A DNA stretch of 10,976 nt from the UHGV virus genome UHGV-0119342, one strand, 5' to 3'. This DNA comes from a virus. The position numbers and the translations under genes were made by a program. Under the pieces are notes generated by a model. That model saw nothing but the letters and a program-made list of their open reading frames with translations, was not told the origin of the DNA and did no database searches. Positions 2,596 through 10,976 of this stretch are shown piece by piece. How positions within the stretch are numbered: the first letter of the stretch is position 1; every line of letters starts with the position of its first letter.

Positions 2596-4662
2596 TTATT
2601 CCTCTGGGTAAGCGGAGCTAATCAAGGTATCTTCCTGCATACGATTAATATGCGATGTGGTTCTTTCATCAATAACCTTTCCATCAAGTACCGTCTGAGT
2701 TGTGATATTGATTGTCTGAGGCTGAATATTTACTGACGGCTTGATAACCTTTAAATCTTGTGTGAATGTTTCCACTCGACCTTTCAGATTATTTAATGCT
2801 TCAGGTGAAAACTGTGGAACATCTTTTGATTTGCCATGAACCATAGCCCATAAAACAGCAGCTAAAGAGTTCATGTCACCAGTCAATGCTTGGTCTGTGG
2901 GTTCCACCTTTGACCTTACAACTTTGTCAATTGGATTATCTGACTTACTCATCTGACGTTCATAGAACGGTTTAACAATGGAGTTAATCACATCAGTTGC
3001 CATACCGACAATCATTACTTTGGTAATTGCATCAGCTACAGATAATTTTCCTTTACCACCTTCAACACTACCGGAACGTGAATTAATTCTTCCCGCTGCT
3101 GTATTTGCTACATTTCCAAGCATGGAAATAGCCCTAATTAAGTTCCAGATACCACCTACAGCACCAATACCAGACCTTACAGCGACAATACCAGCAAGTC
3201 CCTTTAATGCACTTAACAGGCCATTTGCGATACCATCAGCTACAGCTTTTTGAGTGTCATTTAATTCTCTGTAAGCAAGGGTCACTCTGTCAAAGAATCC
3301 CTGCACTCGGTAGCTAATCGTGGTTAAATCATCAATACCGTTTGACATGCTTTTCATCAGGTCGCCAAAATGTTCACCAAGATTTTTAGATTGACCACCT
3401 AGTGAATTAAGTAAATTAGTCAGTGACCTTGTAAAGTCTGTTAAACCTTCCTGTGAACCGTCGAACATTAAGGCCAGATTATTATTCCATGAATTAGAAA
3501 GGCGGCCTAACTGCGTCTGAGTAGAGTTAATAATCTTTTCCCATCCACCAGCTTTATCAATCATCCTTCCCATTTCAGCGGATACTTTAGGAAGAACATC
3601 TTTAGAAAGAACTTTACCGTTCTTCATAGCTGCATCTAATTGCTCGGTAGTCATCCCAAGGCTTCTGGCAAATAACTGGAAAGCACCTGCCATTCTGTCA
3701 CCTAATTGACCACGTAGCTCTTCAGCCTGAATCTTCCCTTTAGAAGCCATCTGCTCGAAAGCTTTCAGAATCCCGTTAATTTCATCAGTGCTTAAACCCA
3801 TTAGTCGGGATGTACCAATCACATTAGAAAATAAGGATTCTTTCTGGTCTGCATTCATATCACCAGCACCAGCGGAAAACTTAGCAAAGCTACTTAATGT
3901 TTCAATCTGGTCTACACCTGTATTATTAGCAAGATTCTTAACGAAGTCTGTAGCTCGTTTAGCGCCTTCATCGCCTAATACAAATTGTGCCGCTCGTTGT
4001 GATGCTTCTTTTTTCAGACCAATCTCCATAATCTTCCTATAAGCTTCTAAGGCTGTCTGAAAACTATAAATGGCTGTACCTGCTTTGATTGCACTTGTAG
4101 CTAATACATCTAAACCATTTGAAGCATTTTCACTGTGATTGTTTTTGCTGGTGGTCTTATTAAACTTAGAAAGTGTTTCACGTAGATTTTGATTTAACTT
4201 TGCTAACTCACGATTAAAAGCTTCGTTCCCAAGTGTCTTGGATTTACCGCTTAAGCTGTAATACTGGCTTCTAAAATACTTCTCAAGTAGAGGATTAAAG
4301 TCACGAAGCTTGCTCATATTCACGCTATGCGCTGCTGTGATTGCTCTGTTGCCGCTAATTCGTGGTTGCCTTGCTGCTTTAACAGTTTCTTCAACCTGAG
4401 TTTTGAACTTAAAGACCTTCGTAGATTTGGCTCTTTCCTCCAGCTTATTAAAAGTCTGGTTAATCTTCTTTTCCATATTCCCCAAAGAGGCTGTTAAATC
4501 CTTATCCATGCTCTTTGGGTTAACTTTAAATGCTCTATTCAAATTGCGTTCAATTCTTTGTGCTGACTGCAAAGCTGCCTTTTCAACTCTTTGCAGTCCC
4601 TTAATAACGTTTTCATTGAAGCCTAGCTCAACGATAAAACTATCAACTGTGAATTTGCTCAT
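2596..4662 (-). CDS. Phage tail tape measure protein
   Basis: 688-aa ORF. Coiled-coil-like N-terminal region, central segment resembling the conserved tape-measure domain (GKIQAEELRGQLGDRMAGAFQLFARSLGMTTEQLDAAMKNGKV), Gly-rich hydrophobic segments near the C-terminus. AGAGGTG 10 nt upstream of ATG. Confidence 0.8.
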   Translation of the reverse strand: MSKFTVDSFIVELGFNENVIKGLQRVEKAALQSAQRIERNLNRAFKVNPKSMDKDLTASLGNMEKKINQTFNKLEERAKSTKVFKFKTQVEETVKAARQPRISGNRAITAAHSVNMSKLRDFNPLLEKYFRSQYYSLSGKSKTLGNEAFNRELAKLNQNLRETLSKFNKTTSKNNHSENASNGLDVLATSAIKAGTAIYSFQTALEAYRKIMEIGLKKEASQRAAQFVLGDEGAKRATDFVKNLANNTGVDQIETLSSFAKFSAGAGDMNADQKESLFSNVIGTSRLMGLSTDEINGILKAFEQMASKGKIQAEELRGQLGDRMAGAFQLFARSLGMTTEQLDAAMKNGKVLSKDVLPKVSAEMGRMIDKAGGWEKIINSTQTQLGRLSNSWNNNLALMFDGSQEGLTDFTRSLTNLLNSLGGQSKNLGEHFGDLMKSMSNGIDDLTTISYRVQGFFDRVTLAYRELNDTQKAVADGIANGLLSALKGLAGIVAVRSGIGAVGGIWNLIRAISMLGNVANTAAGRINSRSGSVEGGKGKLSVADAITKVMIVGMATDVINSIVKPFYERQMSKSDNPIDKVVRSKVEPTDQALTGDMNSLAAVLWAMVHGKSKDVPQFSPEALNNLKGRVETFTQDLKVIKPSVNIQPQTINITTQTVLDGKVIDERTTSHINRMQEDTLISSAYPEE

Positions 4663-7542: not shown

Positions 7543-8100
7543 TTAAAATTCCTCTGTAACTAAATACGGGTCAAACTCAAAGTCTGGTTGCTCGTTTTCC
7601 ATTGGCTCAATATTTCCAACGGCAATATGATGCTCAACAACACCAATTAACTTTGCGCACATTACAGCAAGCAATGCACAATATTTATCGCTTGGTAATT
7701 CGTAGCTAAGTCTGGTTGCTTGTCGCTGAAGATGATTTGTCACGGTGGCTGAGTTAATTTCATCAAGGTTCTTTAGGAGATAAAATAGCTTCTTGTTGTA
7801 TTTCGGGTGACCTTCACCTCTACAGAATCCAATGAAAATATCATCAAGCTTACTTGGTAATTGTTCGTAGCTGTCAAAGTTAGCCAGATAATTTTTGATG
7901 CTGTTCTTTGTTGTTTTGCGTACTGACATATAACGACTCCTCGGTGTAATTGCCCGAATTACTTCGTCAATGCCTTTGCGCTCTGCTCTGGTGAACTTGG
8001 GTACTTCGTGACTGGTGGGGGAGTTTGTGTAAGCGTAGGAGTTGTGCTTGTTGCGTTCTCTTGATGCCTGAAGCATCGCTCTAAATTCTCTGTCGTTCAT
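7543..8100 (-). CDS. Hypothetical protein, first gene of the leftward operon
   Basis: 185-aa ORF, GAGGG 11 nt upstream of ATG; stop codon directly abuts the next start (TAAATG). Acidic/aromatic C-terminal tail (DFEFDPYLVTEEF). No recognisable domain. Confidence 0.6.
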   Translation of the reverse strand: MNDREFRAMLQASRERNKHNSYAYTNSPTSHEVPKFTRAERKGIDEVIRAITPRSRYMSVRKTTKNSIKNYLANFDSYEQLPSKLDDIFIGFCRGEGHPKYNKKLFYLLKNLDEINSATVTNHLQRQATRLSYELPSDKYCALLAVMCAKLIGVVEHHIAVGNIEPMENEQPDFEFDPYLVTEEF

Positions 8101-8151
8101 TCATGTTCTGACCCTCATAAGATGTTATTATTCTGTTAACTTATATATACA

Positions 8152-8180
8152 ATCTTAGCAGTTTCAAAGACTAATGTCAA
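8152..8180 (-). promoter_or_regulatory. Candidate sigma70-type promoter for the leftward operon
   Basis: Minus-strand -35 TTGACA (8175-8180), 17-bp spacer, -10 TAAGAT (8152-8157); back-to-back with the plus-strand promoter. Confidence 0.3.
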
Positions 8181-8187
8181 GCATTTT

Positions 8188-8217
8188 TTAACATTTCATT
8201 AACATCTGTGGTATAAT
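8188..8217 (+). promoter_or_regulatory. Candidate strong sigma70-type promoter with extended -10
   Basis: -35 TTAACA (8188-8193), 18-bp spacer, TGg + TATAAT (8209-8217); points toward the small ORF at 8348. Confidence 0.5.
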
Positions 8218-8347
8218 GGTTTTATGAGAGAGGGAAAATATAAAGGCGTGGCTATGAGGTTTATTCGATAGGGGTTGGTACAAGCCCAACTAACCGAATC
8301 AACTATGTATTTGGTCACATGGTATTGCATTGCACACAGGAAATTTA

Positions 8348-8524
8348 ATGGTAAATCTCCCTCCTGAGCTGGGGTCACCTGATGTATGGGCTGGTGGAGG
8401 TGTTGGGCTGATTGCAGGCCTGCTACTTCGCTATGTCCTCGTCAGAGTGCTTGTTGTCTTTAAACTGTTCGGTCGTACATGGACGCTTGACCTTAAGGAT
8501 AATGACCACACAGACCCCCGTTAA
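8348..8524 (+). CDS. Small single-pass membrane protein (58 aa from the ATG; the ORF track begins at a TTG at 8330)
   Basis: AGGA 6 nt upstream of the ATG at 8348; hydrophobic segment WAGGGVGLIAGLLLRYVLVRVLVV; locally GC-richer than its surroundings. Confidence 0.45.
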   Translation: MVNLPPELGSPDVWAGGGVGLIAGLLLRYVLVRVLVVFKLFGRTWTLDLKDNDHTDPR

Positions 8525-8538
8525 ACTCCCTCCAAAAC

Positions 8539-8570
8539 CCCCTGTACGAGATAGTATAGGGGTGTCTTTA
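8539..8570 (+). terminator. Candidate terminator after the small membrane-protein ORF
   Basis: Imperfect 8-bp stem cccctgta / tatagggg (one mismatch), 8-nt loop, followed by tgtcttta. Confidence 0.3.
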
Positions 8571-9453
8571 GCATTTTGTGCTATCTATTAAAAAATAGCT
8601 TGACAGAACAGGAAAGCTGTATCTATCAAGTATTCACCTCTCTGACAGTAATTTCTAAAAGTTCTTATTTTTCAATAAGTTGTAATTAGCCAATATATAA
8701 GGCTGTCCAGTACCTTCACAGAAAAACTTCAGAAGCCTTCTTAATCAATCCACTAAGCGAGAGAGAGCGATAACCCCAGAGAGGGAAGCTCCCTTCTTAA
8801 AAACCTTCTTGACAATCTTTACAGGCCTTGTTCAAGGTAATCGCAATAGTTTTTCTTCCCTCGGTTTCCCGTGTTCCTCGGTTTGCCTATTGAGGTTTGA
8901 AAGACCTCTGTAACTTCCCTCTTAGACAGGGAAGAATAATATTGGTGACACAAGCGAAGCGCCCCTCTAAAAAGATTTTTTAGCTATTTTGTTTAAAAGC
9001 ACATCAAACGATACATTTTATTGATTTAGGTCAAAGACAAAAGCATTGACAAAATGGTAAGATTGTTCACATGACCTTACTTAACAGATTCTTAAGAGCT
9101 TTGAAGCGGCCTATTTAACAAGGTCACTACCTCTGGTCTTATCGTTCCCTCTCTTCTTGGTAGTTCTGTTAAGTATCTTTTCAGGTATCTCTTACAGTCA
9201 CTGTTAAGATGATACTCTCCCTTCGGGTTATATCGTTACTTTCTCTCCCGTTAAACACTCCTTCCTAACTATCTACATAATCACTTCTAAGAATCTTACA
9301 AGGTAATATCCAGACCTCTTATAGCTGACCTGATACAGAAACATTACAGGCATACTCTCTAGGTTCTGTGTAGTTCCCTTGGTGGGAATAGATGCTCCTA
9401 CAATAAGAGCATCATTAATCTATATAGTCCTCTTCCGAGAACTTAATAGTTTT

Positions 9454-9481
9454 TTGATGTACATCAATCATTATCTAAAAT
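9454..9481 (+). promoter_or_regulatory. Candidate promoter for the HNH endonuclease gene
   Basis: -35 TTGATG (9454-9459), 16-bp spacer, -10 TAAAAT (9476-9481). Confidence 0.3.
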
Positions 9482-9539
9482 ATGATATGAAGTTTCTTGG
9501 TAGTATTACATCAACAAGTTAATTGAAATAAGGAATATT

Positions 9540-10064
9540 ATGGTGACTAGGTATACCAAGGCATGGCCTGAAGAAGTTATAAGATACATCAATGAAAATA
9601 TTACAGCAGATTTTGAATCTGGAACATTATTTAGAAATGGTGTAAAAATCGAGGGTTCACTTGTAAATCCTAAACCAAGACAATATCTGGCTTTTGGTTG
9701 TCGGATTAATGGTAAGTTCAGAATACTTAAGGTGCATCAGGTTATTTTCTATCTATATCATGGTAAACAAGCTAAACTATGGATTGACCATATAGATGGT
9801 GACCCGCTAAATAATGCTATTAGCAATCTTCGCGAGGTTACCAAAGAGCAGAATCAGGCAAACATGATACCCAGAAAGAAAACAAAATCAGGTTACAAGG
9901 GAGTACACCCAAGAGTGGATAACAAGGGGTTCTGGGCTACAATACGCTGTAATGGAAAATCTCATTATCTGGGTCAGTTTAATACAGCAGAAGAAGCTGC
10001 AAAAGCCTATGATGCTGCATCACTGGAATTGCATGGTAAATATGGACACAGGAATTTTAGCTGA
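9540..10064 (+). CDS. Free-standing homing endonuclease, NUMOD4-like N-terminus + HNH nuclease + AP2 DNA-binding domain
   Basis: 174-aa ORF, AAGGA 5 nt upstream of ATG. HNH motif VHQVIFYLYHG...IDHIDGDPLNNAISNLREVTKEQNQAN; AP2-like C-terminus YKGVHPRVDNKGFWATIRCNGKSHYLGQFNTAEEAAKAYDAAS. Confidence 0.85.
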   Translation: MVTRYTKAWPEEVIRYINENITADFESGTLFRNGVKIEGSLVNPKPRQYLAFGCRINGKFRILKVHQVIFYLYHGKQAKLWIDHIDGDPLNNAISNLREVTKEQNQANMIPRKKTKSGYKGVHPRVDNKGFWATIRCNGKSHYLGQFNTAEEAAKAYDAASLELHGKYGHRNFS

Positions 10065-10074
10065 TAGTTAATAA

Positions 10075-10104
10075 AGACCTGACATAAACTTGTCGATAGG
10101 TCTG
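10075..10104 (+). terminator. Candidate stem-loop downstream of the HNH endonuclease gene
   Basis: agacctgaca ... tgtcgataggtct: 10 paired positions with a 3-nt bulge, AT-rich tail (gattaaagtttat); weak as an intrinsic terminator. Confidence 0.3.
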
Positions 10105-10896
10105 ATTAAAGTTTATACAGTGATTTTTCATCTTCTAATTTTTTTATAAAAATCGTAGTACCCCCTCTACATTCCCCTTCACCGATAATCTTAAAAAATA
10201 TCTACACTCAATTGATGGCTGTTAAGTACCCCAGATTCACGATATAGCACCCCCTTTGCAAAAGCAGTTAAAATATCTATAACCAATTATTGACTTTCTT
10301 CATAGCATCTGTTTACCTCCACCTCAAAAAAACCTTCATCACATTTCACAGCATCTATCAAGAAGATTTAACCTATCAATAGCTGTAACATTTTATAGTC
10401 CTGTGAAGTCCTCCCCAGTTTTCTCTGTAACAGACACAAACTTCTGTGACCTTATGTGTCAATGACTTATAAGACATGCTCTCAAGGTGCTGTATAGCCT
10501 CTTATCTTCCAATACATAAAACTCTTATAAATCAGTACTGATATGTATACAGTTCGTTTTTAACATAATAGCTGTTTTACGCACTAAGAAGCATCTACGT
10601 AGATTCTGTATAGAGATTAAGATGTCTCTAAGTGATTTTTTAAGAGGAGATACGAAGGAACTATAACCATCACTTCATAACTTTCACGTAGGTAGCTATT
10701 AAGTAGGTTGATAGTCACTTTGAGGGAATATTGATAGTGACCAACTGCATAGACACCGTTATATAGCCCTGTATATAGCACTATATGTAGTGTCTGGAGA
10801 GGAACGACTAACACGATACAGTTTACCCTGAAAAGAGACTTCACAGATTCTCTATATATTTCAATAAGTTATGATAAAAAGAGACTATATCAATAC

Positions 10897-10955
10897 TGCA
10901 TAGAATCTGTGTAGGATTGCATAGATACTTGGAAAAATGCCTTTAAATTGCATAG
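10897..10955. repeat. Helically phased TGyrTAG repeats (iteron-like or operator-array-like)
   Basis: TGCATAG at 10897, TGTGTAG at 10908, TGCATAG at 10918 and TGCATAG at 10949; spacings 11, 10 and 31 bp. The last two copies sit in a longer direct repeat ATTGCATAG(A/G)TAC. Confidence 0.45.
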
Positions 10956-10976
10956 GTACTAACCTGTTTATGTCCT

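Follow-up and report, generated by a model that had tools for sequence, protein, structure and literature searches.

The stretch of DNA analysed here, virus genome UHGV-0119342 (10,976 nucleotides [nt]; hereafter the window), ends on its right side in a region (10400-10976) that is free of open reading frames (ORFs) and rich in the heptamer TGYRTAG (Y, C or T; R, A or G). Part of this region is a repeat-bearing block that is conserved across the variants of a chromosomal island of Escherichia coli, and neighbouring non-coding DNA of the island is homologous to the direct terminal repeat of Felix O1-like phages (Ounavirinae). The block probably serves the island as a docking site for the exploitation of a Felix O1-like phage. 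In the reading that we favour, at a probability of roughly one in three, the block and a nearby mimic of the terminal-repeat boundary channel the excised island into the machinery with which its helper phage processes DNA ends and packages DNA. We infer that this helper is an Ounavirinae phage, that the block is bound by a protein, and that packaging rather than replication is served.

According to this proposal, the flagged stretch would form the rightmost part of the non-coding control region of an island that behaves like a satellite of virulent Ounavirinae phages. Its functional unit would be a block of about 250 nt, in which two same-strand clusters of 7- to 9-mers, (C/T)TG(C/T)(A/G)TAG or TATATAG, are arranged around an A+T-rich core. 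The block may form an array of binding sites for a protein that is common to all variants and is most likely supplied by the helper phage, and it would act jointly with the boundary mimic at 10100-10292. Excised island DNA would thereby enter the end processing and packaging of the helper, in parallel to P4, which carries a P2-like cos site.

Repeats and conservation at the right end of the window

The repeats and the segments that carry or border them are as follows.

9540-10064, + strand: homing-endonuclease-like gene with HNH_3 and AP2 domains; splits the non-coding region of the island and is absent from class B islands
10065-10976 and about 15-20 nt more to the right of the window: nc2, free of ORFs and flanked by the HNH-AP2 gene and a variable cargo gene
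10491, 10607, 10746, 10897, 10908, 10918 and 10949, + strand: TGYRTAG, seven copies
10400-10737: variable spacer of the 21 class A variants (of 46), missing from the others; contains TGTATAG at 10491 and 10607
10738-10976, + strand, continuing to about 10990 past the window: universal conserved block, present in all 46 distinct variants
10746-10791, + strand: repeat cluster 1 (TGCATAG at 10746, TATATAG at 10760, TGTATATAG at 10770 and TATATGTAG at 10783)
10897-10955, + strand: repeat cluster 2 (TGCATAG at 10897, TGTGTAG at 10908, TGCATAG at 10918 and TGCATAG at 10949; spacings 11, 10 and 31)
10842-10851 and 10902-10911: perfect 10-nt inverted repeat, CACAGATTCT / AGAATCTGTG, both arms invariant

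A sequence-only reading of this DNA had pointed to TGYRTAG motifs at helical phasing as a candidate iteron origin or operator array, and all seven copies, together with TGTATATAG at 10770, lie where that reading had placed them. The seven copies in 10400-10976 are all on the + strand, with none on the - strand. In 5000 dinucleotide-preserving shuffles of the same segment the mean count was 0.26 and the maximum 3, and none reached 7, which bears out the proposed enrichment. When any 7-mer with two R/Y positions could be chosen, the most frequent motif reached a count of at least 7 in 1 of 500 shuffles. The phasing holds for the last four copies and is weak over all eight RTAG elements of the block, whose phase concentration at 10.5 bp was R = 0.63 (p = 0.03 at this fixed period, p = 0.57 in a scan over periods). 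Two near-palindromes were correctly located at 10595-10602 and 10544-10551; as to conservation, ctacgtag failed, since 7 of 9 aligned E. coli variants have CTACATGA instead. In the nine aligned variants, CTGTATAG is invariant at both 10491 and 10607. A LexA box was considered by eye at 10538-10552 and rejected, as CTG-N9-CAG is one base short of the CTG-N10-CAG spacing.

The flagged region is heterogeneous: 10400-10737 occurs in about half of the variants and 10738-10976 in all of them. The 46 distinct sequences were drawn from ten E. coli loci, E. albertii and Citrobacter loci, and 39 metagenome contigs. The contigs were retrieved by a degenerate anchor pattern, which forces conservation at 10806-10851, and the conservation of that segment is therefore uninformative. 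The block runs from GTGACCAA to CCTGTTATT[T/A]ACAGG and ends about 15 nt outside the window. This terminus forms the palindrome CCTGTTA-T-TAACAGG, and variable cargo begins directly after it. Thus, the expectation that the array might continue past the window is met by only about 15 nt more of conserved block, followed by unrelated cargo DNA. In blastn searches the block was found in 549 of 5426 complete E. coli genomes (ca. 10%), and also in E. albertii and Citrobacter. Its identity in a divergent island class was 84.6%, while long coding matches there were 71-78% identical, and it was the best-conserved non-coding piece among those compared in the island.

The region is truly non-coding. TAA, TAG and TGA occur in all six frames of 10065-10976, which upholds the earlier description of this DNA as ORF-free and excludes stop-codon recoding as the cause of its appearance. 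The sole listed ORF (75 amino acids, GTG start, 10617-10844, - strand) spans DNA that is absent from half of the variants. No tRNA or tmRNA gene and no Rfam family at E <= 1 was found in the region, and blastn of 10065-10976 against phage and plasmid records gave no direct similarity. Sigma-70 promoters and intrinsic terminators occurred at chance level, with 13 promoter-like sites against 13.3 in shuffles. Long conserved ORF-free DNA could also encode a non-coding RNA, or could be a pseudogene in decay or a relic whose conservation simply reflects recent spread. For an RNA, the whole 930-nt + strand folds at z = -2.65, although with 20 shuffles only. The block itself folds no better than shuffles (z = -0.8 and -1.2), RNAalifold on 44 haplotypes gave no support (compensatory pairs 1 of 34 and 0 of 38; covariance terms 0.26 and 0.28), the Rfam search was empty even at its permissive threshold, and no convincing promoter or terminator was seen. 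Indels that are not multiples of three and stops in all frames also count against this group of readings. Finally, conservation over E. coli, E. albertii and Citrobacter above that of long coding matches argues against a neutral relic. We consider this group of explanations very improbable.

Within the block, cluster 1 has spacings of 14, 12 and 12. In cluster 2, the first copy plus TCTGTGTA is nearly invariant across haplotypes, as is the first copy with the start of the second (ACTGCATAGAATCTGTGTA), where the one common change, C to T, keeps TGYRTAG. Copies 2-4 drift in about 40% of haplotypes, to TGTGTAA, TGCTTAG and TGAATAG. The triplet of this cluster is free of indels, and its spacing is constant in all haplotypes. 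The segment between the two clusters is highly conserved. It includes the most A+T-rich part of the block (10855-10894, 82.5% A+T), which lies inside the inverted repeat and represents a modest enrichment over a background of 66% A+T.

This layout brings forward an iteron-type origin, in which an initiator bound to the clusters would melt the A+T core and start replication of the excised island at this site once a helper infects, as in PLE and SaPI. Two direct-repeat clusters flanking a 41-nt stretch of 82% A+T with a 10-nt inverted repeat recall the layout of SaPI, PICI and plasmid origins, and the eight same-strand RTAG-type repeats are about one helical turn apart within the clusters. In the excised circle described below, the non-coding region is the point of divergence between a leftward operon and the rightward HNH and integrase genes, and the minimum of the cumulative GC skew falls there; the same argument has been used for PLE, whose origin also lies inside a 2.7-kb non-coding region with several repeat families (PMC7145576). 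On the other side, no Rep, primase, helicase or RepA_N domain was detected in any island ORF with Pfam, PHROGs, NCBIfam or PADLOC, although several ORFs lack an assigned function and could include a novel Rep, and no initiator candidate is conserved across the classes. Neither a DnaA box with <=1 mismatch nor an IHF consensus is present in 10065-10976. Moreover, the repeats are 7-9 nt long, whereas classical iterons are 17-22 bp, and copies 2-4 drift as described. We regard an origin as doubtful. Of the two functions named in the sequence-only reading, what stands is that multi-copy, one-strand, conserved repeats in non-coding DNA fit a protein-binding array; nothing origin-specific was found, and the operator reading is weak.

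The variants also bear on the partner of the block. Block haplotypes do not co-vary with island class, the type of adjacent recombinase, helix-turn-helix (HTH) genes or integrase type. They reassort among island classes that differ in integrase (35-91% identity), neighbour genes and cargo, and the partner is therefore not a class-specific island protein. The protein set shared by all classes consists of the integrase (three types), the tail proteins Dit and tape measure protein (TMP), a 71-amino-acid ORF and a fast-evolving 234-amino-acid ORF, and domain searches found no Rep, TerS or regulator among them. In view of this shared set, a partner from the helper phage or the host is more likely than one from the island.

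Homology to the terminal-repeat region of Felix O1-like phages

The non-coding DNA of the island amounts to about 2.3 kb (nc1, 1.4 kb; nc2, 0.93 kb). In a sensitive comparison with the phage SUSP1, its only match was a 1.7-kb ORF-free region between convergent gene blocks. The segments involved are as follows.

NC_028808.2, 72920-74613 (L058 46921-48614): SUSP1 ORF-free region; 1.6-1.8 kb in SUSP1 and seven other Ounavirinae
8101-9539: non-coding stretch nc1 of the island, 1.4 kb
10100-10292, - strand: homologous to the right boundary of the direct terminal repeat of Ounavirinae and to the A+T-rich DNA that adjoins it (TTTATAAAAAT..., CCCCTTTGCAAAA, AAAATATC)
about 9055-9300, - strand, in nc1: homologue of the terminal-repeat interior (nhmmer E values 4e-6 and 7e-7; phage states 562-812, E values 4e-9 to 3e-8)

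This phage region, which includes the direct terminal repeat, has been conserved across more than 200 Ounavirinae records. Citrobacter phage vB_CbrM_HP1 (OK539913.1) has a 570-bp repeat annotated at both genome ends, and several Ounavirinae records begin at the homologous point and match in two places. A 613-bp terminal repeat has been reported for a Felix O1-like phage by PhageTerm (PMC6454146). The genome paper of Felix O1 inferred short terminal repeats and did not find a small terminase (PMC3185647). We found no described function for the ORF-free region.

A phage profile was built from the eight Ounavirinae regions, in which the terminal repeat occupies states 458-1037. Conversely, an island profile of 10065-10320 matched all eight phages at the same boundary, with E values of 1.4e-13 to 1.7e-8. 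Phage states 943-1160, which cross the right boundary, matched the window at 10192-10292 with an E value of 1e-3 and other island classes with E values of 1e-15 to 1e-9. A mini-profile of the boundary gave a match in all 14 island variants tested, and the equivalent of the repeat boundary is predicted near 10226. In the window the boundary homologue lies about 450 nt left of the block, and the orientation of the block relative to it was constant in the ten variants with a strong boundary match. The homologue itself contains, at 10156-10300, a two-copy repeat of about 80 nt, TAG[T/C]ACCCCC...AAAATATCTA[C/T]A...CAATT..TTG.CT, which in some variants carries a 24-nt insertion, CAGTTGATTCGGTAGGATCTACCT.

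Homology to the end region of the presumed helper is thus present for 10100-10292 and 9055-9300, and the block itself has motif-level similarity without significant alignment. In SUSP1, TATATAG occurs in 13 copies in the 1.7-kb region and in 4 copies in the other 87.5 kb (ca. 135-fold), and TRTATAG at 9.4 per kb in the ORF-free region versus 0.13 per kb elsewhere; overall, TATATAG and TGTATAG were 70- to 135-fold enriched in the phage region. TAACAAG occurs 9-13 times on one strand of this region across the eight Ounavirinae. In contrast to the related TRTATAG, TGYRTAG itself shows no concentration in the phage non-coding DNA. Using the 25 most region-specific phage 7-mers, we obtained the following densities.

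Flagged region, 10400-10976: 31 phage words per kb
nc2, 10065-10995: 27 per kb
Island coding DNA: 3.5 per kb
E. coli flank: 1.5 per kb

The flagged region holds 18 such words versus 5.3 in its own shuffles (1 of 1000). Beyond single words, all eight phages have a phased triplet, CTATATAG-N2-CTATATA-N-CTATATAG, which lies outside the repeat at about 430 nt from its right boundary. Cluster 1 was the top island-wide match to a mini-profile of this triplet (E values 0.002-0.18), with Smith-Waterman scores of 29-33 against about 20 +/- 2.5 in shuffles; cluster 2 resembles the triplet weakly. Likenesses noted by eye, such as CTGTGTAGGATTGCATAGAT with the reverse complement of the start of the phage repeat (ATCTTAACAATCCCTACATAG), scored at shuffle level and were not relied on. 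Taken together, island and phage region share the TATATAG/TGTATAG vocabulary, the phased triplet and the A+T-rich TTTATAAAAAT and CCCCTTTGCAAAA. They differ in that the island is a non-collinear mosaic and that cluster 2 uses TGCATAG and TGTGTAG, not TATATAG. The block resembles the phage region at the level of motifs only.

In view of the satellite-like context and the homology to the terminal repeat, it is more informative to read the flagged DNA as a site for helper-directed packaging or replication. Between these two, the convergence of genes on the phage region is easier to reconcile with an end or packaging region than with an origin. The presence of the shared vocabulary in a phage region that holds the terminal repeat, and on which transcription converges, also speaks against the origin considered above and for an end function. 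We favour packaging because the only clear non-coding homology is to the genome-end region of the phage, by analogy with the cos sites of P4 and P2, and because transcription converges there.

Several points weigh against a site that directs helper packaging. The boundary and interior homologues are not collinear with the phage, no counterpart of the left boundary of that repeat was detected anywhere in the islands, and the spacing between boundary mimic and block is not fixed but ranges from about 500 to about 1000 nt. Neither a profile of 10400-10976 nor one of the block matched the phage significantly (E values of at least 0.11 and at least 0.38, respectively), and in 10793-10990, which includes the TGCATAG triplet, phage words were not enriched (p = 0.13). 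The mismatch between an 11.8-kb genome and a head with a capacity of about 88 kb is a further objection. The conservation of the block could partly come from frequent recombination at the edge of a cargo hotspot. The link to the helper, moreover, is drawn from sequence comparison.

The island in its integrated and excised forms

The window is 99.9% identical to a segment of the E. coli chromosome, the genome compared being NZ_AP022159.1 (strain WP5-S18-ESBL-07), which matches the window at 100% identity over 8100-10976. It represents an island of about 11.8 kb in yecE (DUF72), with yecD on one side and yecN-cmoA on the other. The genes identified in it, apart from the HNH-AP2 gene, are as follows.

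125-1528, + strand: large serine recombinase (integrase), 467 amino acids in the window versus 507 in NZ_AP022159.1; left end of the island
1658-2422, - strand: Dit-like baseplate protein, Felix O1-like phage tail homologue
2596-4662, - strand: TMP, Felix O1-like phage tail homologue

A single 5-nt alignment gap relative to NZ_AP022159.1 indicates that the integrase of the window is probably frameshifted at its C-terminus by a 5-nt deletion. TMP and Dit share ca. 69% amino acid identity with those of Ounavirinae (Felix O1-like myoviruses). Together with two small upstream ORFs they make up the whole tail module of the island, and the rest of the phage virion module is absent. The island TMP has 688 amino acids versus 746 deduced from the SUSP1 gene coordinates. 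The retention of TMP and Dit and the length of TMP raise the possibility that the island alters or poisons tail assembly of the helper. The other genes are small ORFs without assigned function. In the viral-contig collection, the only matches to the island were prophage-type predictions from isolate genomes, and the island was absent from the phage and plasmid collections searched.

One circular metagenome contig (L036; ERZ506742 NODE_633; 11,178 bp unique with a 55-nt terminal overlap) is free of cargo. Here about 30 nt separate the block from the att core overlap AAAGCACTAG, and the integrase ATG lies 72-81 nt past the att core and 110 nt past the block. This contig shows that the island has an excised form, with block-attP-int as the ancestral order, while contigs with yecE flanks at both ends represent the integrated form. 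Thus, the island shows hallmarks of a satellite, namely a size of 11.8 kb, a large serine recombinase, only TMP and Dit of a tail module, and a circular contig of 11.2 kb.

The position of the block in the cargo-less circle, just ahead of the att core and the integrase start, suggests another role, in which it would be a regulatory region upstream of attP, holding operators or a promoter for the integrase or cargo or sensing a helper protein. Copies 1 and 2 of cluster 2 also form a 19-nt quasi-palindrome, CTGCATAGA-A-TCTGTGTAG, and a promoter-like site on the - strand (TACACA, an 18-nt spacer and TG-n-TATAGT) overlies copy 2. Promoter-like sites are not in excess over shuffles, however, and the TG of this extended -10 is gone in most haplotypes. 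In the strain of the window, the DNA to the right holds a gene for 277 amino acids on the - strand (L012 12397-13230) and then attR. nc2 therefore lies between convergent genes there, and 0.9 kb of opposite-strand cargo separates the block from att. The block is also independent of the integrase type and of neighbouring HTH or recombinase genes. A regulatory region is accordingly unlikely.

The cargo after the block is variable and encodes 277 amino acids, 306 amino acids on the + strand or 275 amino acids (L003 11502-12422 and L007 11477-12304), or is missing. None of these cargo proteins had a match in Pfam or PADLOC, and they could be unrecognised defence genes. By eye, the 277-amino-acid protein has N-terminal hydrophobic helices and a coiled-coil-like tail. 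In class B, which comprises 25 of the 46 variants, the spacer between the boundary mimic and the block is replaced by a gene for a small serine recombinase (Resolvase and HTH_7). These recombinases are of two types, 37% identical and in opposite orientations (L049 11004-11573, L036 5981-6529 and 23 more loci).

The block could then be a recombination site of the res or hix kind for these small serine recombinases, or a homologous anchor for swaps of cargo cassettes. The recombinase gene lies about 85-325 nt from the block in the class B variants, several unrelated cargo types start right after CCTGTTA-T-TAACAGG, and Sin-type res sites contain direct repeats. The class to which the window belongs lacks such a recombinase and has an intact block, and block haplotypes do not track the recombinase type. 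Unlike sites with 2-nt crossovers, the palindromes have just one base at their centre. The same block orientation relative to the boundary homologue, in ten of ten strong-match variants, gives no sign of inversion. In favour of this explanation, small serine recombinases are reported markers of defence-gene hotspots (PMC13552941). Overall, we judge a recombination site to be quite unlikely.

Comparison with known satellites and minor elements of the non-coding DNA

PLE, the satellite of ICP1 in Vibrio cholerae, offers the closest comparison in organisation. Both are small islands (18 kb versus 11.8 kb) with a large serine recombinase and homing-endonuclease-like genes, and both have a lytic myovirus as helper, inferred in the case of the present island. 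Each has a multi-kb, repeat-rich non-coding region between divergent gene blocks, which in PLE holds the origin (PMC7145576). In contrast to PLE, the island lacks a detected RepA_N initiator and possesses TMP, Dit and homology to the terminal repeat of the helper. Host, integration site (yecE for the island) and helper family also differ.

The resemblance to P4 lies in the DNA end, as the clearest non-coding homology to the presumed helper is to the DNA-end and packaging region of that helper. P2 and P4 have cohesive ends, whereas Ounavirinae have direct terminal repeats of ca. 570-613 bp, and the island has no cos site. In addition, what is recognisable of the repeat in the island is limited to the right boundary and some of the interior, in rearranged form, and its block shares only the motif vocabulary. 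Origins of SaPI and PICI and the pac site of P1 likewise have two same-orientation clusters of short repeats flanking an A+T-rich or cleavage region. SaPI origins adjoin their rep gene and co-vary with it, and no adjacent co-varying rep gene was seen for the island block. The hexamers of P1 pac are Dam sites, while the island repeats lack GATC. By these comparisons, the island may work most like PLE and would resemble P4 in its DNA-end mimic, and it belongs to neither family, its genes, host and helper being different.

The repeat array alone is of moderate interest; its context is more surprising. We found no description of the island or of a Felixounavirus satellite in a literature search of incomplete coverage. 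In a wider view, the island family would be one that carries its own TMP and Dit and a rearranged copy of the terminal-repeat region of the helper, and the block would be a cis site that captures the packaging or replication machinery of the helper. That the family represents undescribed satellites, or helper-targeting parasitic or defensive islands, of Felix O1-like phages in E. coli and its relatives, an enterobacterial counterpart of PLE with the block as cis capture site, seems to us only a little short of an even chance. To our knowledge, PLE is the only one among the established satellite families with a strictly virulent helper. If the wider view is right, the island, present in ca. 10% of complete genomes, would provide a tractable E. 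coli model of a satellite with a virulent helper. It would also have a bearing on phage therapy, in which cocktails often include Felixounavirus phages, and would hint at what the conserved, gene-free 1.7 kb of Felix O1-like phages does. The block and the boundary mimic are small, precisely delimited targets.

Several minor elements were observed in the non-coding DNA. nc1 and nc2 are joined across the HNH-AP2 gene by a 21-nt inverted repeat with 90% complementarity (9165-9185 and 10827-10847) and by the direct repeats TATTTTTCAATAAGTT (8666 and 10855) and ACTT[A/C]ACAGATTCT (9079 and 10838). nc1 also contains a near-consensus promoter with an extended -10 (TTAACA-18-TG-TATAAT, 8188-8217) ahead of a 64-amino-acid ORF (8330-8524), which has a hydrophobic helix, is followed by a terminator-like hairpin at 8539-8562, and is 56-97% conserved in some variants. 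This ORF could be the gene of a small membrane or toxin-like peptide. Between the promoter and the ORF, at 8269-8310, lies a short element, ATAGGGGTTGG[T/A]ACAAGCCCAACTA(ACCGAATCAACTAT), with a GTTGG/CCAAC hairpin. The same element recurs in nc2 as an optional insertion of 23 nt or about 45 nt, near 10660 and after 10956, in about a third of the haplotypes, and in this it seems to behave like a tiny mobile or duplicated module.

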